24,934 bases of DNA from a virus (Duplodnaviria > Caudoviricetes). The number at the start of each line of letters is the position of its first letter. The stretch's first letter is position 1. Location: the IMG/VR virus record IMGVR_UViG_3300016263_001525, positions 1-24,934 of that record. One strand, written 5' to 3'. The translations under genes were made by a program, and so were the position numbers. Of this stretch, positions 5,373-24,934 are shown in pieces. The notes below the pieces were generated by a model that saw nothing but the letters and a program-made list of their open reading frames with translations, ran no database searches and was not told where the DNA came from.

Positions 5373-6392
5373 TCAATTAGTTTCAACTTTGCAATTTGTA
5401 AAATGATGCCTTTTCATAACTGGCCCTTTACCTACCTTGCCGCATTGGGGGCATTGATGAACTTCCAACAGATTACTAGTACCGTCTGCCAATCTTTTTT
5501 TGGCCATCCCAACCAAGTTATGTGTACCTTGTTGGTATCTACGTTTCTGAGAGAGGCTATTTCCATTAGAGGAAATTGCATATACTTTGTTTAGAGATAG
5601 GGCAGCATCGTCTATCAATTGATCCAGTGTTTTATCACAAGCCATGCCTTTTTTACTATTTTCTACTAATGTTATCAATCTCAAATTAGTCCAATGCCCC
5701 AGCCAGCACGGCGGTACTCCCTGATTGAATCCCTCTTGAACGCTAAAAATATGATCTAATGCCATTTCACTACGATTCAATCTCTGTGGATTGATCTCAT
5801 GGAAGAATTCACGCCAACTTTGCTCAGTAAATCGCCACACTGCTTCATGATACAGCTTGCGATCAGTCCTCAATTCTATTGGAGTAGCACCGTTCTGAAT
5901 TCGTGCCTCAGATATTTTTCTTTTGATGTCAGGATGCTTACTTGGATTATCTACACCATAATTTTTTATAAAAGTTTCTTTCATTTTTCTTTTTTGATTT
6001 TTGGTATATGATGCTTTATTGCGATATTTTCTTCCTTCACGCACAGCTTTTAGATTTGACTGTCTTCTTTTTTCATTGATTTCTGGGGTATGACTATTTT
6101 TGAAATCTCCCCTTATTTCCTGTAGTTGGCGTCTAGCTTTGTGGTTTTTAGTTTCAAGATACCGATTTTCACACCATTTGACCATGTCCCCAGTAACAGG
6201 ACATCTAGGTATTTGCCAAACATCTTTGAGTATGTGCCAAACTCTCTGTTTGGGCTTTGCTCTTTCTGGTAAAAATTCTGTCAAAATCAATATTTCCTGC
6301 CAGAGGTCAGGATGGGTTTTATGTAGATATCTAGTTACTGATTTATTATAGGATGTATCAGTTTCAATGAGTTTTTCTAGTATGTCTTTCAT
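5373..6392 (-). CDS. Free-standing HNH-family homing endonuclease (putative)
   Basis: LDHIFSV...GHWTNLRLITLVENSKKG (HNH/HNN core), KNYGVDNPSK repeat unit, C-terminal CPQCGK...RHHFTNC zinc finger. AT-rich relative to its neighbours. Confidence 0.75.
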   Translation of the reverse strand: MKDILEKLIETDTSYNKSVTRYLHKTHPDLWQEILILTEFLPERAKPKQRVWHILKDVWQIPRCPVTGDMVKWCENRYLETKNHKARRQLQEIRGDFKNSHTPEINEKRRQSNLKAVREGRKYRNKASYTKNQKRKMKETFIKNYGVDNPSKHPDIKRKISEARIQNGATPIELRTDRKLYHEAVWRFTEQSWREFFHEINPQRLNRSEMALDHIFSVQEGFNQGVPPCWLGHWTNLRLITLVENSKKGMACDKTLDQLIDDAALSLNKVYAISSNGNSLSQKRRYQQGTHNLVGMAKKRLADGTSNLLEVHQCPQCGKVGKGPVMKRHHFTNCKVETN

Positions 6393-7192: not shown

Positions 7193-8140
7193 CTAATCTG
7201 TCTGTGTATTTATGCTCTTACAGCGACTTCCGTGGCATCGAGTGAATATTGAAATATCTATGACTTTCTTACAAAACTCGCATTGGATTTTTCGTCTATT
7301 CCGCGAAGTTTCACTTATTTTAGCTCTCTGTGCTGGAGTCAGATCCAAAGTCTTTTTCTTTTCAATTGGTTTCAAACTTTTGCAACGATCACCATGCCAC
7401 CGAACATATACTGCTATATCTATAGTTTTACCACAATGCTCACACTGAACTCGAGCTCTGTTACGTGATTTCTCGCTGATCTGCTCTCGTTGTTCTGGTG
7501 TTAGATTTCTTTTCTTACCCAAATTAGGGTTGGGGTGATTTTTATTATATTCTCGAACTCGTTCACTTATTTTAGCTCGCTCGTCATGAGTTTTAGGCAC
7601 GCCTTTGTTCCAAGCTGATTTTCCTTTCCGTTTTTCAGAAAGTTTTTTCCTGGTTTCTAATGAACGCTTCTTACCCAAATGCCAATTACCATTTTTATTC
7701 AACGCTTCTTTTTTAGCTACACTCATCTTGGCTTTTTCTTGTGATGTTCGAGGTATTCCTCGATTCCAAGCAGGCTTACCTTTTCTAGCTTCGGCTAGTA
7801 ATTCACGATTTTTTTGATATTCTGTTCCTGATATTTGATATCTTTGATTCTGTGTATTGGTATTGGTCATTCGCCACAGTGCATAAATCATGAGATATCT
7901 GTTGCGACCTTCTGTGAATTTAGTCAGCAACTTATGGCAGATATAATGCTCTCTGGCTGTTAGTATAACTAAATTTTCTGGAACATCTGGATCACTGGTT
8001 AGATTATTGCAGGATTGACGAAATAACGAGCGTGGGATAATGTGATGAGTTTCAGTGTAACCTATTGGAGTTGATCTGTTTATCGCCTGGGTTATCAGAG
8101 CCGAATACCACTGTAGGTATTTGTTGTCAATAAATAGCAT
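7193..8140 (-). CDS. Free-standing HNH homing endonuclease with NUMOD3-like repeats and two C-terminal zinc fingers
   Basis: GYTETHHIIPRS...ENLVILTAREHYICHKLL; PAWNRG / GKKRSLETRKKLSE repeats; CEHC...HGDRC and CEFC...HGSRC. Start placed at MLFIDNKY (8140), 9 nt after AGGAGG. Confidence 0.9.
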   Translation of the reverse strand: MLFIDNKYLQWYSALITQAINRSTPIGYTETHHIIPRSLFRQSCNNLTSDPDVPENLVILTAREHYICHKLLTKFTEGRNRYLMIYALWRMTNTNTQNQRYQISGTEYQKNRELLAEARKGKPAWNRGIPRTSQEKAKMSVAKKEALNKNGNWHLGKKRSLETRKKLSEKRKGKSAWNKGVPKTHDERAKISERVREYNKNHPNPNLGKKRNLTPEQREQISEKSRNRARVQCEHCGKTIDIAVYVRWHGDRCKSLKPIEKKKTLDLTPAQRAKISETSRNRRKIQCEFCKKVIDISIFTRCHGSRCKSINTQTD

Positions 8141-8210
8141 TGCTGGTGTCCTCCTAGACATTAGAGTGGTTGGGGAATTGCAGTCCCGCGAACCACATTT
8201 TTATTTATAC
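8141..8210 (-). promoter_or_regulatory. Structured 5' leader (copy A) with upstream TATAAATA promoter
   Basis: Minus strand GTATAAATA-AAAAT-GTGGTT-CGC-GGGA-CTGCAAT-TCCC-C-AACCAC-TCTAATGTC-TAGGAG-GACACCAGCA-ATG; homologous to 10341-10410. Confidence 0.75.
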
Positions 8211-8244
8211 ATCCTCTGCATAAATAATCATGGAGATTGTAACA

Positions 8245-9558
8245 GTGCCCAGAATATCACTTTGGCAAGAAGGCCGCCACTCAAATGATTACAAATTTTT
8301 TGATCAGCAAATTAGAGAATCAATTTCTATAGGTGGTACTGCATGCTATATTCACAAATATCTGGGGCCTGCAGATAACACTGTGAGCCTGAACACCAGC
8401 AACATCACTGTGACTGGCAACAGCATATTGAGATTCAGCAACACCAGCAACGTCAGCGTGGGCCAGTTTGTGTTTGGGACCAATATTCCCAGCAACACCA
8501 AAGTGGGTGCCAAGACTGCCAACACAGTGACCCTGACCAACAGCGTGAGCAACACCGTGGTTACTGGTTCTGCTATCAAATTCAGCGCAATCAACGATGC
8601 CACACAACCAGTGTACACCAATCAGAGTGCAGTAAACATCCAGGATCTGTTGCTGTTGGAAAATCGTGATAGAAAATACGATACCAATGTGTACAACCTC
8701 AGAGGCATATACAATGTACAGGATCTGGACTTTGATCTCAGCCAGTTTGGCTTGTTTTTACAGAACGACACTGTGTTTATCACTTTTCATCTGAATGAAA
8801 TGGTTCAGAGACTGGGACGCAAAATCATCAGCGGTGACGTCATAGAGCTGCCGCATCTGAAAGATTTTTACAGTCTGGACGAAACTGTGCCTGTTGCGCT
8901 GAAACGTTTCTATGTGGTCAAGGATGCCATACGCAGTGCAGAAGGATACAGTCCCACTTGGTGGCCGCATCTGTGGCGCATCAAGGCCACGCCCTTGGTG
9001 GACAGTCAGGAATACAAACAGATTCTGAATCAGATCCAGGCTGGCACAGCCAACACCACACTGAAGGATCTGATCAGCACAGTGGACAAGTCCATACTGG
9101 CCAACGAAGCCATCATTGATCGCGCTGAACAACTGGTACCTGAAAGTGGTTATGACGTAACTCCTTACTGGATACCGCCCATGAGCGATGGCACAAAATA
9201 CGGTACTCCGTTGCCACCCGATGCCAGTCCAGTGGAGCGTTTTGAAGGTTATTTGGTGGGTACGAGTTCTGCTCCCAACGGCCGACCAGTTACCACTGGC
9301 ACTGAATTCCCTGCCAATCCCAACGCTGGAGACTTCTTTCTCAGGCTGGATTTCTTTCCCAATCGACTGTTCCGTTATGATGGAAACCACTGGGTCAAAG
9401 TACAGGACGATGTTCGCACGCCGCTGACTCGTGGGCTGGGAGAAACTCAGCAGGATCGATTTATCAATGACGATACCACATTTACCAACAGTGAAGGCCA
9501 GACAGAAACCACACTGCAAGACCTCAGCACTCTGTTGAGGCCCGATAGCGATTACTAA
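8245..9558 (+). CDS. gp14: Neck / head completion protein (T4 gp14-like)
   Basis: PRISLW...NDYKFFD, IQDLLLLENRDRKYD, DFDLSQFGLFLQNDTVFITFH, LGRKIISGDVIELPHLKD; lies between gp13 and gp15. Likely GTG start at 8245 (GGAG at 8232-8235); the track start is 8230. Confidence 0.75.
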   Translation: MPRISLWQEGRHSNDYKFFDQQIRESISIGGTACYIHKYLGPADNTVSLNTSNITVTGNSILRFSNTSNVSVGQFVFGTNIPSNTKVGAKTANTVTLTNSVSNTVVTGSAIKFSAINDATQPVYTNQSAVNIQDLLLLENRDRKYDTNVYNLRGIYNVQDLDFDLSQFGLFLQNDTVFITFHLNEMVQRLGRKIISGDVIELPHLKDFYSLDETVPVALKRFYVVKDAIRSAEGYSPTWWPHLWRIKATPLVDSQEYKQILNQIQAGTANTTLKDLISTVDKSILANEAIIDRAEQLVPESGYDVTPYWIPPMSDGTKYGTPLPPDASPVERFEGYLVGTSSAPNGRPVTTGTEFPANPNAGDFFLRLDFFPNRLFRYDGNHWVKVQDDVRTPLTRGLGETQQDRFINDDTTFTNSEGQTETTLQDLSTLLRPDSDY

Positions 9559-10341
9559 TTATGAGTTACCAACAGCATTTCTGCTCTCAAGGCTTTTCTT
9601 ATACATAGTTTGTTTACTAACTAACCCTGCTTCTTTATTGGCTTTTCTTGTAGCCACCCTTTTTGCAATGGTCTCAGCTGACTGTTTCTCCCCACGTCTA
9701 GCTTTACTAATTTTATTCTTAGTATCGATTGATCGAGGTCGGCCAATTTTTCCTAATCTAGATTTGCTTAGGTTTTGCCGATGTGCCTCAGTAAAAACTT
9801 TTCCCTTATGTGATTCACTCATTTTTAGTTTAGTTTCTTCTGTATGTTTGAAATCTTTTTTGATTTTGCTAAGTTTACACCGAGTTTCTGCTGTATGTTT
9901 TTTGCCCATTTGAGACTTTCTCATTTTAGTTTTAGTTTCAAGAGTTCTTTTTTGACCAGTGTTACTTTTTCTTCTTTTTTCTATCACTTCTTTACGAAAA
10001 TCAGTAGTCCAGGATTCAATTTTTTCCTTTCTCTTTTGTAAAGTAGTGTTAGATACTTTTATACCAGAACTACCCTCGCCGCCATTTGTTCTATTTCTAA
10101 GAATACCTGTGCCAAGATCTACTCGACCCAATCTGGATATTTCAGAAATTTCTAATTCAAATGCCTCGTTCTCTGTAAGGTTAGCCGCTATAATTACAAT
10201 ACAATCGTAATCCTTAGGTTTATTTTTTCTCGTTTGCCAAGCACGATTGTTACAACCTTTTCCCACATAGTATGGTGTTCCCGCAGGAGCAATATCAGAA
10301 TCTTTAGATCTTAGATAATAATATACATAATAAATATTCAT
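9559..10341 (-). CDS. Free-standing GIY-YIG homing endonuclease with NUMOD3 repeats
   Basis: YYVYYYLR...PYYVGKGCNNRAW...EAFELE...ILRNRTNGGEG, then multiple GKKHTAETRCKLS / HTEETKLKMSESHKGK repeats. Start placed at MNIYYV (10341) after GGAGG. Confidence 0.9.
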   Translation of the reverse strand: MNIYYVYYYLRSKDSDIAPAGTPYYVGKGCNNRAWQTRKNKPKDYDCIVIIAANLTENEAFELEISEISRLGRVDLGTGILRNRTNGGEGSSGIKVSNTTLQKRKEKIESWTTDFRKEVIEKRRKSNTGQKRTLETKTKMRKSQMGKKHTAETRCKLSKIKKDFKHTEETKLKMSESHKGKVFTEAHRQNLSKSRLGKIGRPRSIDTKNKISKARRGEKQSAETIAKRVATRKANKEAGLVSKQTMYKKSLESRNAVGNS

Positions 10342-10410
10342 GCTGGCGCCCTCCACGACGCTAGAGTGGTTAGATATTACAGTATCGTGAACCACACTAA
10401 TATTTATACA
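10341..10410 (-). promoter_or_regulatory. Structured 5' leader (copy B) with upstream TATAAATA promoter
   Basis: Minus strand GTATAAATA-TTAGT-GTGGTT-CAC-GATA-CTGTAA-TATC-T-AACCAC-TCTAGCGTC-GTGGAG-GGCGCCAGC-ATG; homologous to 8141-8210 with compensatory changes. Confidence 0.75.
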
Positions 10411-10424
10411 CCATAAATAGAATT

Positions 10425-11822
10425 ATGTATCAAAAGTACCATTCCGACGATCAGATCAAAAGATTTATTGTGCAGGTGATCCGAGCCCTGAGTAATTTTC
10501 AGGTACAATTTGGCGATGGCACACTGTATCGAGTACCAGTAACCTATGGTGACAGCAGCCGTCAGGCCGAAGCCATTGTAAATCGCAACAGTGAAAACAG
10601 CATCCCCAGTTGTCCACTGATCAGTGTGTACATCACTGACCTCAAATACGATCGCACCAGAATTCAGGACCCCACATTCATTGACAAAATCAGCGTCAGA
10701 ACTCGAGCATATGATCCAGTTACCGACAGCTATCTGAATCAGCAGGGCAATGCTTATAGCATCGAACGTCAGATGCCAGTGCCCTACAAACTCAATGTAA
10801 AAGCTGACATCTGGACCAGCAACAGTGACCAGAAGTTTCAGCTGCTGGAACAGATTCTGGTGCTGTTCAACCCGGCTCTGGAAATACAGAGTACCGATAA
10901 CTATATTGATTGGACCAGCTTGAGTTACATGGAGCTCACTGACAGCACCTGGAGCAGTCGTAGCATACCTCAGGGCACTGATGATCAGATCGATATCAGC
11001 AGCGTGAGCTTTGAAATCCCCATCTGGCTCACCGCACCGGCTCGAGTCAGAAAGATGGGTGTTATACACAAGGTAGTGGCTGGAATATTCAATCCCACTG
11101 GCGACCTGGCTGAATTTGTGGCCAGTGATGATCTGTTGTTGGGTACTCGGCAGGGTATCACATTTCAGAACTATGGTATCTGGGTCAACAACGGAGAAGT
11201 AAAACTGCTCAAATACAATCCAGTAAAGACTCAGCCCAGCAATTCAGACATTGAAACCGAAGTGGTATTGGGCACCAGCAAGGACTGGCCAGCTGCACTG
11301 GAAAAATACGGAGTAATTCGCAATGGTATCAGTCAGCTCAGATTGATCCTGGGTACCCAGGATGGCTTTGATAGCGGTACCGAAATTGTGGGCACCATTG
11401 CACTGGATCCCACTGATGATCGCACATTGTTATTCACAGTGGATACTGATACTCTGCCAGTCAACACACTATCACCAATCAATGCTATTATTGACCCCAC
11501 CAGAGTCCATCCGGGATACGGAGGATTACCAGCGGCTGCTGCTGGCCAGAGATATCTGCTGCTCAAAGCCACCGGCAATGCTGATGATGCTGAAAGTGCA
11601 CCAGGATGGACTTTCAACAGCCAGGAAACCATTGCTAATGCCAATGACATTATTCAGTACAACGGAACTCAATGGGTTGTGAGTTTTGACAGTTCAGCTG
11701 CCACCACCACTCAATACGTTTCCAATCTGACCAGTGGTCGTCAATATAAGTACTCACAAGCATCATGGACAAAAAGTTGGGAAGGCGAACATCGGCCTCT
11801 AAATTGGCGGCTAATTCTGTAG
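10425..11822 (+). CDS. gp15: Tail terminator / sheath stabilizer (T4 gp15-like) with C-terminal extension
   Basis: DDQIKRFIVQ...RVPVTYGD, MPVPYKLNVKADIWTSNSDQKFQLLEQILVLFNP; follows gp14. Confidence 0.85.
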   Translation: MYQKYHSDDQIKRFIVQVIRALSNFQVQFGDGTLYRVPVTYGDSSRQAEAIVNRNSENSIPSCPLISVYITDLKYDRTRIQDPTFIDKISVRTRAYDPVTDSYLNQQGNAYSIERQMPVPYKLNVKADIWTSNSDQKFQLLEQILVLFNPALEIQSTDNYIDWTSLSYMELTDSTWSSRSIPQGTDDQIDISSVSFEIPIWLTAPARVRKMGVIHKVVAGIFNPTGDLAEFVASDDLLLGTRQGITFQNYGIWVNNGEVKLLKYNPVKTQPSNSDIETEVVLGTSKDWPAALEKYGVIRNGISQLRLILGTQDGFDSGTEIVGTIALDPTDDRTLLFTVDTDTLPVNTLSPINAIIDPTRVHPGYGGLPAAAAGQRYLLLKATGNADDAESAPGWTFNSQETIANANDIIQYNGTQWVVSFDSSAATTTQYVSNLTSGRQYKYSQASWTKSWEGEHRPLNWRLIL

Positions 11823-13156: not shown

Positions 13157-14050
13157 TTAGTTGCTGGGCAACTTAACTGTTTCATTTATAGTGGCTGCAT
13201 CCAGTGTCCATCTTACACGAGCATTACCAGCACCTGGCAAGCCAAACTGTGTGCCGGTTCCGGCCACCACAGTGGCCACGTGACCGCTGATTTTCTTCAC
13301 ATAGTATGTACCACTGGCGCTGTCGGTTGCAGTGATTCTCATCTCACCACTGACTGGACTGGTGGTGACCAGGTTAGCACGACCCACATTGCCATTGGCA
13401 GTCTGGATATAAAAGCTCTTGCTGCTGATCTGGCGGATAATGTCAGCTGCACTGGTGTCGCCACCGATGTTGCTGCTGAAGGTAATGGCGTTGCTCACAC
13501 TGCTGGCAATAGCTGCCAGAGTCACTGTGCCCAATACGCCAGTACCAGCGTCGTAGAATACTGCATTTCCGCTGATGTTAGCGGTGTTTACCAAACTCAG
13601 AATCACATTGCCAGCATTCACTGTGGTGACACGAGCACTGGTGTTGGCACCTGTCGCTGCTACCTGCATACCCACTGAAATTCCAGTGGTTGAACTGGTG
13701 ATGGTGATCACATTACTGCCGCTGGTGCCGCTAACATTGGCACTGAGTACTGTCACGTTGGCTGGCTTGACCAGGGTGGCTGTGGCGCTGGTGTAACCAG
13801 AACCAGATTCTATGATACCCACACTGCTCACATTGCCGTTGGCGGTGTAGATGCTGATGTTGGCTGTGGCTGAAACACCTGTGGGAATGTTGGGTGTGCT
13901 GATAGTAACTGTGACACCCTGGCTATATGCTGTGGCGTTACCAGCTGCAACTGCACTGATTTTCTTACCGCCGATTCCGTAATCGTCAGTGGTGGGTGTT
14001 GCACCCACGTTGCGATTTCCGAAATATTTTGATTGAAGTGGTCTGCCCAT
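13157..14050 (-). CDS. Putative virion structural/decoration protein (MGRPL N-terminus), 297 aa
   Basis: Thr/Ser/Ala/Gly/Asn-rich beta-strand composition, AAGGAG RBS, late motif TAAATA at 14127-14132. Function inferred from composition and context only. Confidence 0.6.
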   Translation of the reverse strand: MGRPLQSKYFGNRNVGATPTTDDYGIGGKKISAVAAGNATAYSQGVTVTISTPNIPTGVSATANISIYTANGNVSSVGIIESGSGYTSATATLVKPANVTVLSANVSGTSGSNVITITSSTTGISVGMQVAATGANTSARVTTVNAGNVILSLVNTANISGNAVFYDAGTGVLGTVTLAAIASSVSNAITFSSNIGGDTSAADIIRQISSKSFYIQTANGNVGRANLVTTSPVSGEMRITATDSASGTYYVKKISGHVATVVAGTGTQFGLPGAGNARVRWTLDAATINETVKLPSN

Positions 14051-14068
14051 TTGTTTTTTCTCCTTGTT

Positions 14069-14121
14069 GGACGTTCTAGGTCCTTACGCGGTGGTGTCCG
14101 CATAAAATCCCCTCTGAGGAT
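14069..14121 (-). promoter_or_regulatory. Three-hairpin 5' leader candidate
   Basis: Minus strand ATCCTC-AGA-GGGGAT, TTATGCGG-ACACCA-CCGCGTAA and GGAC-CTAGAAC-GTCC between TAAATA and the RBS. Confidence 0.55.
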
Positions 14122-14129
14122 ATGATTAT

Positions 14130-14947: not shown

Positions 14948-15019
14948 AAGAAAAAGCCGGCTCTCAGAGCCGGCTTTTGGGTTTGTTTTGCAGTTGCAGC
15001 TTAGATGAAGCTGATGTTG
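14948..15019. repeat. 72-bp direct repeat, copy 1 (terminator plus last 19 nt of gp23)
   Basis: 71/72 identical to 16866-16937 (single mismatch 14990 g vs 16908 a); contains the hairpin AAAAGCCGGCTCT-C-AGAGCCGGCTTTT. Confidence 0.97.
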
Positions 15020-15069
15020 AAGTCTGGATTTTATTTGTTCTGCATAAATACTTAGTGAGGAAGCAGAGT

Positions 15070-16851
15070 ATGTTAGAACAACTACAGCAAATAATACAGG
15101 ATCTAAATCCCAAAAGTTATACCAGAGTAATCAGTAGACATTCTGATTTATTGCATTGGATCATTGGTGAACAGGCTCGATTGGGTACACAAACCCTATC
15201 AGAAACGTTGTATTGCTTGCTTAACCTTTGTGAGCCAGTTCAATGTGCTTGCGGCAACCCTGCACTGTTCAACACTGTAACCAAAGGCTATAGAAAATTT
15301 TGTAGTCTGAAATGCCCGCAAAAAGGTCATCAGCACAGCAGCACTGTGAGATTCATGTGGGCCAACTCTGAGAAATTGAATAAGATGATCCAGACTCGCA
15401 AGAAAACTTGTCTGGAGAAATACGGTGTAGAAAACGCCGCACTAAATTCGATCGTCAAAGAAAAAACTCGCAAAACTAACCAACAAAGATGGGGAGCAAA
15501 TACTCCGTTGGAAAGTTCTCAAATCAAGCAAAAAATAATTCAGAAGAATCTACAAAAATATGGCGTAGAAATGCCTTTTCAAAGCAAAATTATTCAGCAA
15601 AAAGCTCGAGACACTTTTGAACGAAATCACGGTGCAGCCAATCAGATGCAACTGGCACGAGCGGCGTGGCAACAACAAAATGGCCCTGTGAATCCTTTTG
15701 AACTACCGCAAATACGACAAAAATCTTTTGACACTATGATTGAAAAATACGGAGTCAAATATGCATTTCAATCACCTGAACTGTATCAAAAACATGTAAC
15801 TACTCATTTAGAAACCTGGGGTCGTGCGAATAATGCGCAAATACATCTGACTGATGAGCAATATCAGTTGCTCACTAACCCGGATCAACTAAAACAAGCG
15901 TTAGAGCAAAAATCACTGAGTCAGGTTAGCATTGATACAGGCATCCGCAAGTCACTGATTCAAAATTATCACGATCGTTATCAATGGAATATTATTCCCA
16001 AAAACTCTCGTAGTGGGTTTGAAGACGAAATTGCAAAATTTCTGGACCAGAATAACATCACTTATCAACGCAACAACCGCAAATTGATTGCTCCACAGGA
16101 AATTGATTTCCTAATTGAAGATCAATTGGCTATTGAATTTAATGGATTATATTGGCACAGTGAAATTGCTGGTAAAAAGCACAGGTTGTATCATCAACAA
16201 AAAATGAAGGACTGCGCAGATAAAAATATCACTTTGATCACAATCTGGGACGATGAGTGGAGTGAAAAACCACACATTTGCCAATCAGTTATACTGAGCT
16301 TACTAAACAAAAATCAAAAAATTCCAGCCCGAAAATGCACAGTACACGAAGTATCCAACAGCGAAATAAGGCCATTTTTGAATCAGAATCATCTACAAGC
16401 TCACAGCAACGCCAGCATCAACATAGTGCTGAAATATCAGGATCAGATTGTGTGTGCAATGACTTTTGCAAAATCCAGATACAACAAAAAAACACAATGG
16501 GAACTGCTCAGAGCAGCATCACTGATAGGATGTTCTGTACAAGGAGGTATGAGTAAATTGTGGAGTTATTTTGTGAAAAATTATCAACCCCGTTCAGTGG
16601 TGAGTTATTGTGATCGCAGATGGTTCACTGGTAATCTGTATTCTGGTTTGGGTTTTGCACGAAAAGTGACAGGCTCTCCTACATACTGGTATACTAACCA
16701 TAAACAGAGATTTCATCGCAGTGGGTTTACAAAAAAATCATTGGTTGACCAAGGTTCAGATCCCAACCTATCTGAATGGGCTATTATGCAATCCTCAGGA
16801 TGGGATCGAGTGTGGGATTGTGGGCAGGATACTTGGATTTGGACCCAATAA
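15070..16851 (+). CDS. Hef-like putative homing endonuclease: KYGV repeats + PD-(D/E)XK/Vsr-like nuclease + conserved C-terminal domain
   Basis: SGFEDEI...EIDFLIEDQLAIEFNGLYWHSE...LITIWDDEW; ARKC...NHLQ...VVSYCDRRWFTGNLYSGLGF...RVWDCG. Start placed at MLEQLQ (15070), with GAGG RBS and TAAATA at 15045-15050. Confidence 0.8.
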   Translation: MLEQLQQIIQDLNPKSYTRVISRHSDLLHWIIGEQARLGTQTLSETLYCLLNLCEPVQCACGNPALFNTVTKGYRKFCSLKCPQKGHQHSSTVRFMWANSEKLNKMIQTRKKTCLEKYGVENAALNSIVKEKTRKTNQQRWGANTPLESSQIKQKIIQKNLQKYGVEMPFQSKIIQQKARDTFERNHGAANQMQLARAAWQQQNGPVNPFELPQIRQKSFDTMIEKYGVKYAFQSPELYQKHVTTHLETWGRANNAQIHLTDEQYQLLTNPDQLKQALEQKSLSQVSIDTGIRKSLIQNYHDRYQWNIIPKNSRSGFEDEIAKFLDQNNITYQRNNRKLIAPQEIDFLIEDQLAIEFNGLYWHSEIAGKKHRLYHQQKMKDCADKNITLITIWDDEWSEKPHICQSVILSLLNKNQKIPARKCTVHEVSNSEIRPFLNQNHLQAHSNASINIVLKYQDQIVCAMTFAKSRYNKKTQWELLRAASLIGCSVQGGMSKLWSYFVKNYQPRSVVSYCDRRWFTGNLYSGLGFARKVTGSPTYWYTNHKQRFHRSGFTKKSLVDQGSDPNLSEWAIMQSSGWDRVWDCGQDTWIWTQ

Positions 16852-21053: not shown

Positions 21054-24038
21054 TTATACTCCTGCTGTTATATCTACGCCACCGGCTGGAGCTGCTGCTG
21101 GTGCAGCTTCAGGAGCTGTTCCAGCACCTGCTTCAGCGCCTAGTTCAGGCGTTTCAGGTGCCTCTGGTGGAGTCAATCCAGTCAGATCAGTTTCAATACC
21201 TGCAGGGCTGATACCCACGTTGCGCAAATTGGTATCTGATTCCACAGCGTCTGCGGCTTTGAGATTTTCCTCACGCCATAACTGGGTGTTTTCCATCATT
21301 TCTTCTTCGCTCAGGCCCAGGAACCTCTTGAGCAAGAACCTCTTGCTCAAGTAAGGCACAGCTTCCAACTGACTGAAGCTGCTGATTTTAGCGCCGTCCA
21401 ATTCCACCTGCCGATACTTGGCAAAGTTTTGAGGCTCATTCATTCTGAGTTCAAACATGGTGTTGTCGATGTTGAGACCACGCCACTTCAGAAAAGCCTT
21501 GAATTCAGTATCCAGTACGCCACTGATCATGGATTGTAGTCGCTTACAATACTGATTGAAGCGATGTTCCTGAATCAATGCTGTGGCTACTTTGCCGTCA
21601 TTGTGAATAGCAGCACTGTCTTCTGCGCCTGTGGGCAAGTAGCTGCTGGGGATTCTGAGTCCTCTGAACAGCTTGTTGGTGAAGAACTTCAGGTCATCAA
21701 TTTCGCCCAGGTTCTGTCCACCAGGCAATGTTTCCACTTTGCTGCCACGGCCTTCGGCTGTCTGCGGGAAGAAGTAATCTTCATTGATTGAGTTTTTTAC
21801 AAAGATTCCAGATTCGATAGCAAAAGTATGATAATTGTGCCAACGTTCTAGACCATCAATAGTAATTGTGCCCACATCTCGAGATTCAACTTTGTCAATC
21901 GACACAATTCTGTGATTGAAATTATTCACTTCTTTCACAAAAGTTTTCCAATTTTTATATCCATACTGACGTAACAAACGATTCATCTTAGAATATCCAA
22001 ATTTAGATAAATCAATTTTATTTTGTGTTACATCAGCGTCAGAAGATGAATTTGATTCTCTCAAAATAGTCATTAATTCAGCATTGTGAGTACATAAATT
22101 CATTACTTCATTCTTATCTTTACTTTGAGTTTTAACTATTTCACTAACAATTTGTAGAATCCTAAAAGGCAGTGTCAAGGTTTGATTTGAAAATTTCACT
22201 CTTTTTTCTAAATTCTCACATAGTTGTTTGTGAAATTCTGGATTATTTTGAATATATCTCTTTCTAGAAATACCAGCATTTAATTTGTAAGAGTGCATAG
22301 CCTCAGGATCATTTTTTCTCATCCAAACTGACTTCTGTTGAGCTTTTCGTATATTGTACAGGGCTGTTTTCTTTGTGACGTCATCCATCTTAGTCCAATT
22401 ATCAACCAATGTTTGAGAAATTTTAGAGGTCATGTCGTCACGATATTCTTGAGTCATGTTTTGCCAAAATTCTTTTTTCTCAGATGCATGATACAACACG
22501 TGATCTCGTTTGTTCATGAATGTAAGGTTTCTGGGATCATTGTTGAATCTATCATAATCTCTATGATGAATAACTGTTTTCTCTGCTCCCTGATATTCTT
22601 CTAAATAAGTGAATTCCTGATGTTTGTTTTGATTGCGGAAGAAATCACCAACCATGCGATGTGTCCAAATCCATTTCTTAGATTCGTGGTCCCACACTTG
22701 TTGATAATCGTTAGTTTTTCCACCTGATATGCTACGATTTCTTGTGTTAAAAGATATCAAACTATCAGAAGCAGTCAAATGTTGAGCTTCAACAAATCCT
22801 TTCCCAAATACAGGAATTTTATGATCTGGTGTACAAATTAAACTGTGTCCATTATCCAACGTAATTTTTATCGCATCTGCATTTTTTCTAGTAATACCTG
22901 CCCAGTTAATCACGCCTGGTACAATTTTACCAGTTTCAGGATCACAACTGTATGCCCAATTTTCTTTTCCAGATTCAAATTCAGTAATCAATTGACGCAA
23001 TTCAACTATTCTTCCATCTAATAAAGGAATTTGAGTATCTAAATCTAAACACAACGGATTATATGTAGAATCCATGAAGTTTGAACCGCCACTTTGTGTG
23101 GGAATTCGGCGCTGATGAATTTCGTTCTTCACACGCTCCACAAATGCCATGGCCATGTGACTGGGCATGCTACCCACATCAATGTAGAATACCCGACGTT
23201 CAGGTGCACGTTGTACACGATAGATCACAATGGAATCTTCCAACAGTTCCTTCTGTTTGTACACTTTGAAGATGTTTTCCAGCACACTCTGACCAAAAGG
23301 CCAGTTGCTGTCCAGACCTTCAGTCAGGCTCAGGTGTACAATGTGCTGAGCCTCAATGGCTACTTCTCTGAGACCATGTTGAAATCTGCTGTTGGTGGTG
23401 TAGGGATTATTGGGAACGTTGTAGGCAGCAGCGCCATAACCAGCAGTGTTGGGCATGGTATGCCATACATTATCAGCAGTGACCTGAGTCACTGTGAGGT
23501 TTTCAAAGTTGGGATTGATGTTACGCAAGATATACTGTTCAGGTCGTTTACCATCACTTTCGTTCACAATGATCTTTACCACATTGGTCATGTCTACCCA
23601 GAACAGCTTGAATGTTTCAGGGTCACGCATAAACACCTGATCGCCGTATTTCAGCGTGTTTCTGAAGATCTTGAACATACGACGTTCCAGTTCATTCAGT
23701 GTACACCAGGCACTCAGCTGCTTCTTGATGATGTTGACTTCGGTTTCTGTGGGTTTTTCCTTGAAAAACAAGTCAAAGGGTGTGTTATTTTTTTCGTTGG
23801 CCTGAGTGCAAAACTCGCTGATGATGTCCAATGCGCTGTTGACTTCGCTATCCACATCCATGGCTTCGTATTGATTATATCTCTCCAGGCGATTGGGATG
23901 ACCCATATACACTTCGGGTAACAGATTGCCATAGTTCTGAAACTTGAAACTCTGTTGAGCAGCTACTGAACTGCCATTTACTGGGCTCAGGGTGCCGTTG
24001 GTGTTGGGTGCAGTTTTGAAATACTTTTTCCAAGACAT
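21054..24038 (-). CDS. gp20: Portal vertex protein (T4 gp20-like) interrupted by an intein
   Basis: YEAMDVDSEVNSALDII, LEDSIVIYRVQRAPERRVFYIDVG, EDYFFP...GRGSKVETLPGGQNLGEIDDLKFF...LRIPSSYL. ATG start at 24038. Confidence 0.95.
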   Translation of the reverse strand: MSWKKYFKTAPNTNGTLSPVNGSSVAAQQSFKFQNYGNLLPEVYMGHPNRLERYNQYEAMDVDSEVNSALDIISEFCTQANEKNNTPFDLFFKEKPTETEVNIIKKQLSAWCTLNELERRMFKIFRNTLKYGDQVFMRDPETFKLFWVDMTNVVKIIVNESDGKRPEQYILRNINPNFENLTVTQVTADNVWHTMPNTAGYGAAAYNVPNNPYTTNSRFQHGLREVAIEAQHIVHLSLTEGLDSNWPFGQSVLENIFKVYKQKELLEDSIVIYRVQRAPERRVFYIDVGSMPSHMAMAFVERVKNEIHQRRIPTQSGGSNFMDSTYNPLCLDLDTQIPLLDGRIVELRQLITEFESGKENWAYSCDPETGKIVPGVINWAGITRKNADAIKITLDNGHSLICTPDHKIPVFGKGFVEAQHLTASDSLISFNTRNRSISGGKTNDYQQVWDHESKKWIWTHRMVGDFFRNQNKHQEFTYLEEYQGAEKTVIHHRDYDRFNNDPRNLTFMNKRDHVLYHASEKKEFWQNMTQEYRDDMTSKISQTLVDNWTKMDDVTKKTALYNIRKAQQKSVWMRKNDPEAMHSYKLNAGISRKRYIQNNPEFHKQLCENLEKRVKFSNQTLTLPFRILQIVSEIVKTQSKDKNEVMNLCTHNAELMTILRESNSSSDADVTQNKIDLSKFGYSKMNRLLRQYGYKNWKTFVKEVNNFNHRIVSIDKVESRDVGTITIDGLERWHNYHTFAIESGIFVKNSINEDYFFPQTAEGRGSKVETLPGGQNLGEIDDLKFFTNKLFRGLRIPSSYLPTGAEDSAAIHNDGKVATALIQEHRFNQYCKRLQSMISGVLDTEFKAFLKWRGLNIDNTMFELRMNEPQNFAKYRQVELDGAKISSFSQLEAVPYLSKRFLLKRFLGLSEEEMMENTQLWREENLKAADAVESDTNLRNVGISPAGIETDLTGLTPPEAPETPELGAEAGAGTAPEAAPAAAPAGGVDITAGV
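21792..23051 (-). mobile_element. Intein (420 aa) with HNH endonuclease domain in portal protein
   Basis: Begins CLDLDTQIPLLDG after extein YNPL; block B LICTPDHKIP; ends YHTFAIESGIFVKN before +1 Ser (SINEDY). Internal HRMV...IHHRDYDRFNNDPRNL...H. The DNA is visibly more AT-rich than the exteins. Confidence 0.93.
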
Positions 24039-24055
24039 CAATGTTTTCCTATAGG

Positions 24056-24934
24056 TTATTTATGCCAAATCCAGCAGCTTTGACCGCAATCCCAGATACG
24101 ATCATATTTGAGTTGTTGCATGATTTGCCATTCGGTTAATTCAGCGCCGTTGTCAACCAGTTGTGATATACAGGATTTTTGAAACTGCATCCTGTTGTAT
24201 CTGTTTTTGTAATCAGTGTACCAATAGCCAACTTGAGTGGATTGATACTGGAATCCCATTTTTTTATAAACTCCACCATCACCCCAACTTTGATCACAAT
24301 AAGATACCACAGCAGACGGGTTATGAGTTCTGATAAAATGCTGGAACAACCTGCTGGCGGCGCCCGGCACAGATCCCAGTGAGGCAAATCTGATTATTTC
24401 CCAATCACAATGTTTGAGAAATCTGGGTTTTCTGAAAGTCATCACCGCAACCAATTGATCCTGGTGCATCAATCCCAAATGATGAGTAGCTGAAGTAGAG
24501 CCTTGTATATGATGATTGTGAATAAATTCAGCCGACTGATCTGATGTTATTTCCTGAATCTGACATTGTCTGGCTGCCACCGTGCGGTCTGCTGATTTCA
24601 GCAGATATCGCAGTCTGGCCTCACATTGCGATTGTTTAAACAGCCATTGATCTTCCCAGATAGTTATCAATCTGATCTGTTGTTTTTGACACTGCTGATA
24701 TTTTTCTGCATGATAATTCCGTGTTTTACCTGATGCCAACTCGCTGTGCCAGTACAATCCAGAGCATTCAATAGCCAAATTCAGACTGGGGACAAATATA
24801 TCCAGTTCCCTGCCAGCCAACACCGCGCGATCACTGTATACTGCACCCTGATATTGAGCCACATACTCTCTTACAGATTTTTCAAAACTGGAAATTCGGG
24901 GTTTCACAAACAGATGTTCTGCAGAATATCGTTT
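24056..24934 (-). CDS. Hef-like putative homing endonuclease, 5'-truncated by window edge
   Basis: Frame stays open to 24934. SSFEKSV...ELDIFVPSLNLAIECSGLYWHSE...ITIWEDQW, ARQC...HHIQG, VVSYCDQSWGDGGVYKKMGF, RIWDCG. Confidence 0.8.
   Translation of the reverse strand, partial: KRYSAEHLFVKPRISSFEKSVREYVAQYQGAVYSDRAVLAGRELDIFVPSLNLAIECSGLYWHSELASGKTRNYHAEKYQQCQKQQIRLITIWEDQWLFKQSQCEARLRYLLKSADRTVAARQCQIQEITSDQSAEFIHNHHIQGSTSATHHLGLMHQDQLVAVMTFRKPRFLKHCDWEIIRFASLGSVPGAASRLFQHFIRTHNPSAVVSYCDQSWGDGGVYKKMGFQYQSTQVGYWYTDYKNRYNRMQFQKSCISQLVDNGAELTEWQIMQQLKYDRIWDCGQSCWIWHK

Follow-up and report, generated by a model that had tools for sequence, protein, structure and literature searches.

The stretch of DNA analysed here (the window; 24,934 nt, all of IMG/VR record IMGVR_UViG_3300016263_001525) covers a virion-gene region of a T4-like jumbo myovirus, whose major capsid protein shares 67-68% identity with its counterparts in Vibrio phage 2.275.O and Pseudomonas phage PA5oct; near-identical DNA is found in freshwater and aquatic runs. 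Two of its minus-strand genes, encoding an HNH-type and a GIY-YIG-like homing endonuclease, begin behind copies (A and B) of the same cassette of about 80 bp, TAAATA-N5-core-N5-TATTTA, in which a structured core lies between two facing promoter-like motifs, and this cassette is the subject of our analysis. The likeness between the two proteins is confined to short basic stretches. The features of the two loci are as follows (SD, Shine-Dalgarno sequence).

7193 to 8140, minus strand: HNH-type homing endonuclease gene with NUMOD3 (PHROG 655, E 2e-42; Pfam matches NUMOD3 only, the HNH label being a sequence motif)
8130 to 8136, plus strand: inward-facing late-promoter motif ATAAATA over HNH codons 2-4 (TAAATA at 8131-8136), 5 nt from G8142
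8142 to 8198, plus strand: core of copy A, predicted antisense RNA (covariance model and folding)
8143 to 8164, plus strand: short hairpin of copy A, with the anti-SD CUCC in its loop (8151-8154)
8166 to 8196, plus strand: long, twice-bulged hairpin of copy A
8202 to 8209, minus strand: late-promoter motif TATAAATA of the HNH gene, predicted start G8196
9559 to 10341, minus strand: GIY-YIG-like homing endonuclease gene with NUMOD3 (PHROG 15526 and 314; Pfam matches NUMOD3 only, the GIY-YIG label being a sequence motif)
10330 to 10336, plus strand: inward-facing late-promoter motif ATAAATA over GIY-YIG codons 2-4 (TAAATA at 10331-10336), 5 nt from G10342
10342 to 10397, plus strand: core of copy B, predicted antisense RNA (short hairpin 10343-10364, long hairpin 10366-10395)
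10401 to 10408, minus strand: late-promoter motif TATAAATA of the GIY-YIG gene, predicted start G10395

The start codons behind copies A and B lie at 8140 and 10341, both on the minus strand, and the HNH gene has a further in-frame ATG, at 8161, that falls inside the element. A first-pass annotation of the letters had described here two copies of a leader of about 70 nt; both are where it placed them, on the minus strand relative to the window, with 24/30 identity near the ATG and with the stems, CUG(C/U)AA loops, UCUA linker, GGAG and CCAGC that it listed, but it missed the two inward-facing TAAATA motifs on the plus strand. The copies align locally with a score of 79, other stretches of the window reaching at most 30, and a covariance model built without the window gave them 57-58 bits, the next best place in the window scoring 8, so that the model finds two copies only.

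The two copies belong to a large family. Two patterns for the long hairpin returned from IMG/VR 106 loci, together with 125 shown of about 1,100 estimated (183 unique), and a pattern restricted to the 3' half returned 127 shown of about 1,600 estimated (117 unique); further homologues are thus numerous. In the 3'-half set the long hairpin lay outside the pattern, and a script took the best of 20 registers for it; with A·C counted as a pair, 700 of 702 cells of its outer stem are paired, in many compensatory versions. That stem, which had been called invariant, is so in the two window copies but varies across the family. An ungapped alignment was made from the 81 of 251 parsed copies that have the modal length, the parser having required outer-stem pairing. 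Its cells are paired in 97.6%, compared with 79.8% after shuffling and 32-47% after sliding, two-sided changes occur at 14 of the 19 pairs, and RNAalifold returns the same structure; the covariation proposed for the inner and second stems thus extends, strongly, to both hairpins across the family. Run on 22 large contigs that had been selected because a copy was known from each, a covariance model from this alignment gave 95 matches, between 1 and 13 to a contig.

Proteins of at least 80 residues encoded downstream (n = 233) were tabulated, as had been proposed, and comprise by motif 160 GIY-YIG-like, 58 HNH and 15 other proteins, in six large clusters. PHROGs matches, nearly all to nuclease families, were obtained for 29 of 32 scanned proteins (30 picked for diversity and the two of the window). 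Element identity is equal within and between nuclease classes (67.1% and 67.4%), and in one GIY-YIG/HNH pair the elements are 98% identical, which bears out the proposal of a portable structured module common to nuclease families. In seven cassette-led open reading frames (ORFs; L239, L333, L148, L241, L257, L305 and L341) the first 100 residues contain neither motif, and these are possibly further nuclease families or decayed genes. One cassette-led ORF (L073, 558-1475, minus strand) has a head-closure domain (PHROG 218) at its end and may be a fusion of a nuclease gene with a structural one. The intact element at L099 279-336, which has an extra hairpin and no evident ORF behind it, is a possible orphan RNA gene, and in one genome (G022; L454, L457, L459-L463) a genome-specific outer stem is common to the cassettes before HNH and GIY-YIG genes.

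The motif NATAAATA is the late promoter of T4-like phages (PMC2984593), and a gp55-like gene is present in all five carrier genomes tested. On the gene side TAAATA lies exactly 5 nt from the core in 132/183 copies. At the other end TATTTA follows the core in 148/171 copies retrieved with search patterns that do not contain it, with a gap of exactly 5 nt in 99/171 and of 4-7 nt in 142/171. The inward motif lies within the start of the nuclease gene and occurs in all three reading frames (106/22/20). Where it encodes Ile-Tyr, the Ile codon is ATT in 102/111 start-proximal cases vs 26/66 internal ones, and the preceding codon ends in T in 110/110; where it encodes Tyr-Leu near the start, TAT is used in 20/20 and TTA in 19/20, whereas internal Tyr-Leu is written TATTTA in 20/109. 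This codon choice indicates that the inward motif is constrained as DNA. Of 19 nuclease ORFs that seemed to be without the element, 12 proved to belong to genes that have it and whose start had been mis-called; TATTTA stands at that place in none of the seven homologues truly without it and in 25 of 521 other ORFs. Leaderless genes show a comparable spacing, their TAAATA-to-ATG gap peaking at 5 (10 of 28 cases), and the window has three with TAAATA-N5-ATG (6405, 10412 and 21058). A purine follows the 5-nt gap in 221/240 and 201/229 cases, and each promoter motif faces a conserved G at its own end of the core. A scan for sigma-70 promoters and terminators found nothing beyond chance at the cassettes.

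The strand on which the conserved structure folds was assessed from its exceptions to Watson-Crick pairing. Read on the gene strand, the pair between the bulges is GC in 121, AC in 46, AT in 16 and GT in none of 183 copies; the short hairpin beyond its first three pairs (171 copies) has 778 Watson-Crick, 113 AC, 5 GT and 14 other cells; and the outer stem of the 3'-half set (117 copies) has 686, 14, 0 and 2, respectively. An A·C pair on the gene strand corresponds to G·U when the other strand is read. Correspondingly, the antisense fold is lower in energy than the sense fold in 168/171 copies, a difference that stems from the short hairpin (antisense lower in 162/171). Both window copies fold better as antisense (-21.9 vs -16.7 and -17.5 vs -16.6 kcal/mol; z about -2.6 vs -1.3). 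An SD-like word is contained in the short hairpin of 241/251 copies, and the anti-SD of the opposite strand is more open than the SD (unpaired probability 0.77 vs 0.56). The element of the first-pass annotation is therefore real, and it is widespread, but it was read on the wrong strand, and the annotation's view of the element as chiefly a messenger RNA (mRNA) leader finds no support, with the pairing kept on the opposite strand behind a promoter motif of its own.

In the cassette, the two hairpins covary, G·U pairs occur when the strand opposite the nuclease gene is read, and a TAAATA faces inward from either side. Since the conserved fold suits that strand and lies between facing promoter-like motifs, a small antisense RNA is its likely product, and our favoured reading, which we hold to be probable, is that the cassette is a portable head of unrelated homing-endonuclease genes, likely encoding a cis-antisense RNA that damps translation of the nuclease. 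Two marks of such an RNA, a promoter of its own facing the target gene and a conserved antisense-strand structure over the ribosome site, are found here, the former as a motif only (fixed spacing, three frames, codon test). In the mechanism that we propose, the late polymerase of the phage, with its gp55-like sigma factor, would read both motifs, and both would fire late. The outer motif would yield the nuclease mRNA, whose SD hairpin, weakened by A·C mismatches, would stay readable, and the inward motif would yield an RNA of about 57-70 nt able to pair with all of the leader except the last 2 nt before the AUG, its anti-SD being displayed in a loop. The two RNAs would first meet at their G/C-rich loops; the duplex would then extend along the bulged stem until it occludes the ribosome site, and convergent transcription may interfere as well. 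As control of this kind involves no contact with the protein, any nuclease family could sit behind the cassette.

The loops of the long hairpin are of a kind that would suit such pairing, being 5-8 nt long with a G+C content of 0.58 vs 0.36. YUNR, a rule for such loops (CopA offers a comparison), occurs in 140/241 loops vs 71±7 in shuffled ones, and 20 of 52 loops form reverse-complement pairs vs 7.7, as would be expected if either strand could offer the kissing loop; as the copies are related, these loop shuffles overstate significance.

Several observations weigh against an antisense function. The long hairpin alone is even between the strands (85/171), and in its loop-closing pair U·G and C·A are about as frequent on one strand as on the other. 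The two bulged bases are fixed, C-R-C in 115/117 copies, while the stems turn over, and the CUG/UAG-A-G junction is likewise fixed, which plain antisense pairing does not require. In the window, the antisense short stem of copy B contains one C·A and neither loop has YUNR. The gp55-like matches are weak in the three largest genomes (E about 1e-5 to 1e-6). No clear terminator is present, the 4-6 U in the 9 nt after the stem, which are as frequent in tandem as in divergent contexts (5.1 vs 5.1), perhaps only mirroring the promoter. No transcript was seen in four RNA runs (contigs only, small shares), in which no listed piece lies over either cassette; pieces do cover structural genes, and contig data are uninformative on strand or expression. 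The copies are also related, and our counts are thus not counts of independent events.

Antisense control of a mobile enzyme is itself known. In IS10 (RNA-OUT) and IS200 (art200), a small cis-antisense RNA covers the leader of the toxic enzyme of a mobile element; G/C-rich loops start the pairing, 30S binding is blocked, and RNA-OUT acts on all copies. For art200, loop-initiated pairing and the 30S block have been shown, with the remark that bulges aid strand invasion (PMC4513863). The likeness to the cassette, whose RNA is predicted from sequence, lies in an antisense RNA over the leader of an enzyme in a mobile element; those systems each serve one transposase from host promoters, with Hfq, and have been shown experimentally, whereas the cassette has a pair of phage late-promoter motifs and heads at least six nuclease clusters. 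By analogy, we infer that it may work like IS10/IS200 control without being a member of those families. Within T4-like phages, an antisense RNA to a homing-endonuclease gene has been described in cyanophage S-PM2 (CfrI, Millard 2010; reviewed in PMC2984593), although it is about 225 nt long, spans psbA and the endonuclease gene at one locus and is not a portable 5' cassette. Gene-specific sense hairpins and autorepression are the known ways in which phages live with many toxic homing endonucleases, a problem still open; a single antisense cassette that serves any family, in more than a thousand natural variants that covary, would add a new way.

More tentatively, and with a chance that we rate as low, the cassettes may form an addressable antisense system, in which one shared RNA frame stands before up to 13 unrelated endonucleases and the loop is the address of each copy. 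The frame would possibly be read by a phage protein at the invariant bulged Gs. Each RNA would shut off the gene it belongs to and, on phages infecting the same cell, any cassette that matches it, so that phages in conflict through homing would have an immunity akin to incompatibility. If so, recombination behind the cassette would bring any nuclease under control immediately, and the many endonucleases that these jumbo phages carry could be explained in this way. Identical loops within a genome were found in 3 of 227 pairs vs 6.0 expected (P about 0.16, not significant; 16 loci unparsed). Across nuclease families, outer stems and spacers resemble each other more when they come from one genome (106 vs 78 and 46 vs 12.7, respectively, in 227 pairs).

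The alternative that survives best, unlikely as we find it, is a cis-acting mRNA leader, in which the mRNA would be stabilised, or a repressor bound, by a hairpin at its 5' end, with the second hairpin controlling access to the ribosome site. The message would begin at the first G of the hairpin, the long hairpin folds equally well on the gene strand, the short one holds the SD-like word, and T-even endonucleases are known to be hairpin-controlled (PMC2988022). Such a leader would not account for the inward TAAATA or for the excess of A·C over G·U on the gene strand (46:0 and 113:5). I-TevI, II and III, segB and Aeh1 mobE resemble the cassette in that a late promoter and RNA structure at the ribosome site limit expression, but in each of these genes separately the promoter is part of a sense hairpin, which can form only in read-through RNA (PMC2988022). 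In the cassette the promoter precedes both hairpins, by the 5 nt noted above, the fold favours the other strand (mean -2.6 sense vs -5.9 kcal/mol antisense) with the SD often unpaired, and a second promoter motif faces the first; identity with the T-even hairpins was rejected on promoter position and stem stability.

An RNA of the antisense strand that acts through a protein or a tertiary fold, as a shared binding site or a trans-acting RNA, instead of mainly by pairing with its own mRNA, is also improbable in our view. It would account for the fixed bulged Gs and junction, for outer stems and spacers being alike within genomes, as in the genome-specific variant of G022, and for the L099 copy without an ORF. 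Against this, the top mutual-information pairs contain no pseudoknot signal, the catalytic domains behind the cassette are unrelated, and the exact overlap with the leader and SD is most simply explained by antisense.

The remaining alternatives bear on mobility and neighbouring genes, for which two units can be delimited.

7217 to 8217, no strand assigned: mobile unit A, HNH gene and cassette, between the divergent promoters of two neck/virion genes
9581 to 10441, no strand assigned: mobile unit B, consisting of nuclease, cassette, new promoter (10412-10419) and new first codons of gp15 (from 10425); joints 9580 to 10442/10445

Three of four DNA runs have contigs with the joint from 9580 to 10442/10445, and in one of these contigs the joint is flanked by 255 letters or more on the shorter side; it also occurs in one RNA run, as the empty allele. 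As these related strains lack the whole GIY-YIG cassette, the cassette travels with its gene. Unit B entered gp15 at about codon 7, and the old gp15 start remains at 9561-9580, where the last codons and stop of the GIY-YIG gene now sit; the unit gave gp15 a new promoter and a leaderless N-terminus (10412-10441). The evidence for unit A is weaker, its joint from 7216 to 8218 having unknown letters between and the lower depth of a branch; in one run (X3) another element copy, in the opposite orientation, directly follows 7216, which suggests that this intergenic site is an insertion hot spot. The cassette lies 20-45 bp from one end of the mobile unit. It also offers a precise tag by which active mobile nuclease units can be recognised in jumbo phages that have not been cultured.

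Both copies stand back-to-back with the promoter of a structural gene, as first annotated, but the arrangement is not general: 80 of 166 loci have a divergent neighbour, 47 a tandem one and 39 none, and many neighbours are replication genes rather than structural ones (95/127 neighbours scanned). That the inward promoter and the structure serve the neighbour, transcribing a displaced divergent gene or insulating the nuclease from it, seems to us very unlikely. Only 22 of the 80 divergent neighbours have their own TAAATA within 260 nt, and T4 endonucleases do carry promoters for adjoining genes (PMC2988022); nevertheless, the cassette is also found, in the same form, beside tandem neighbours, a late promoter is not needed by the many divergent neighbours with a role in replication, and both neighbours in the window own a TAAATA. 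Some mobility enzymes read DNA hairpins on one strand, as at IS200/IS605 ends, REP and attC sites, and strand-specific G·T pairs and extrahelical bases are typical of these. Such a single-stranded site for a recombination or mobility enzyme would suit these two traits and the place near one end of the mobile unit, but it is the least credible alternative, as the bias of DNA folding energy by strand is weak (124/171), the unit lacks a transposase or integrase, and promoter spacing and purine starts point to transcription.

Other identities were considered and rejected. Neither copy matches Rfam 15 at E<=1, nor does the element in 18 homologous loci, in agreement with the first-pass annotation, which recognised no described family; its likening of the loop to a T-loop fails, with 82 different loops among 183 copies, and ARAGORN finds no transfer RNA gene in the window. 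HDV-like/theta and hammerhead ribozymes have a catalytic core with a pseudoknot or a CUGANGA/GAAA core; an identity of this kind was dismissed for want of pseudoknot covariation, of an Rfam match and of conserved core words in alignment A2. An attC identity was also rejected, judged on the generally known core.

The literature we covered, from which subscription journals were mostly absent, contains no description of the cassette, and a term search of the main text of PMC5737381 found no mention of endonucleases. Conserved hairpins with TATAAATA before fractured-gene endonucleases of different families have been reported from aquatic metagenomes (Dassa 2009, PMC2677866); compared by description only, and in the part available, they are given as sense, include the promoter and come without mention of antisense. 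Among the candidate RNAs from IMG/VR of Fremin 2023 (PMC10690425), DNAVirus_1290 and DNAVirus_8080 lie upstream of HNH and GIY-YIG genes, with only 15-29 sequences each and no functional reading in the parts covered. The cassette may be among them, DNAVirus_1290 (92 nt, all 15 sequences from freshwater) fitting by habitat, length and neighbours, again compared by description only.

Searches elsewhere gave little. Against 50,697 phage records, blastn returned only 24-nt chance matches or none, and model R1 found the element in 0 of 10 cultured phages, of which eight have capsid proteins of the closest kinds and two have homologues of the GIY-YIG protein; the collection offered no positive control. 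Protein-based locus searches, which are weak, gave four distant GIY-YIG relatives, none with the element, and no HNH relative. GTDB genomes gave seven pattern matches, of which five look like true copies, on contigs of 1.7-30 kb from metagenome-assembled genomes, and are probably phage pieces; the other two, with no model match, look like chance.

Some other features of the window were noted. Four further nuclease-like ORFs (2-841, 5373-6392, 14977-16851 and 24056-24934) have DUF7487, MTES_1575 and Mom-like matches below cut-off, and the covariance model scan of the window finds no cassette at any of them; the one starting at 6392 is leaderless, after TAAATA-N5. The portal protein gp20 (21054-24041, minus strand) contains an intein with a weak HNH_3 match. 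Positions 14048-14123 (minus strand) match Rfam freshwater-2 (RF02980) with 52.7 bits vs a gathering score of 49.9, directly after a TAAATA and ending on the ATG of a 297-residue ORF at 14050.
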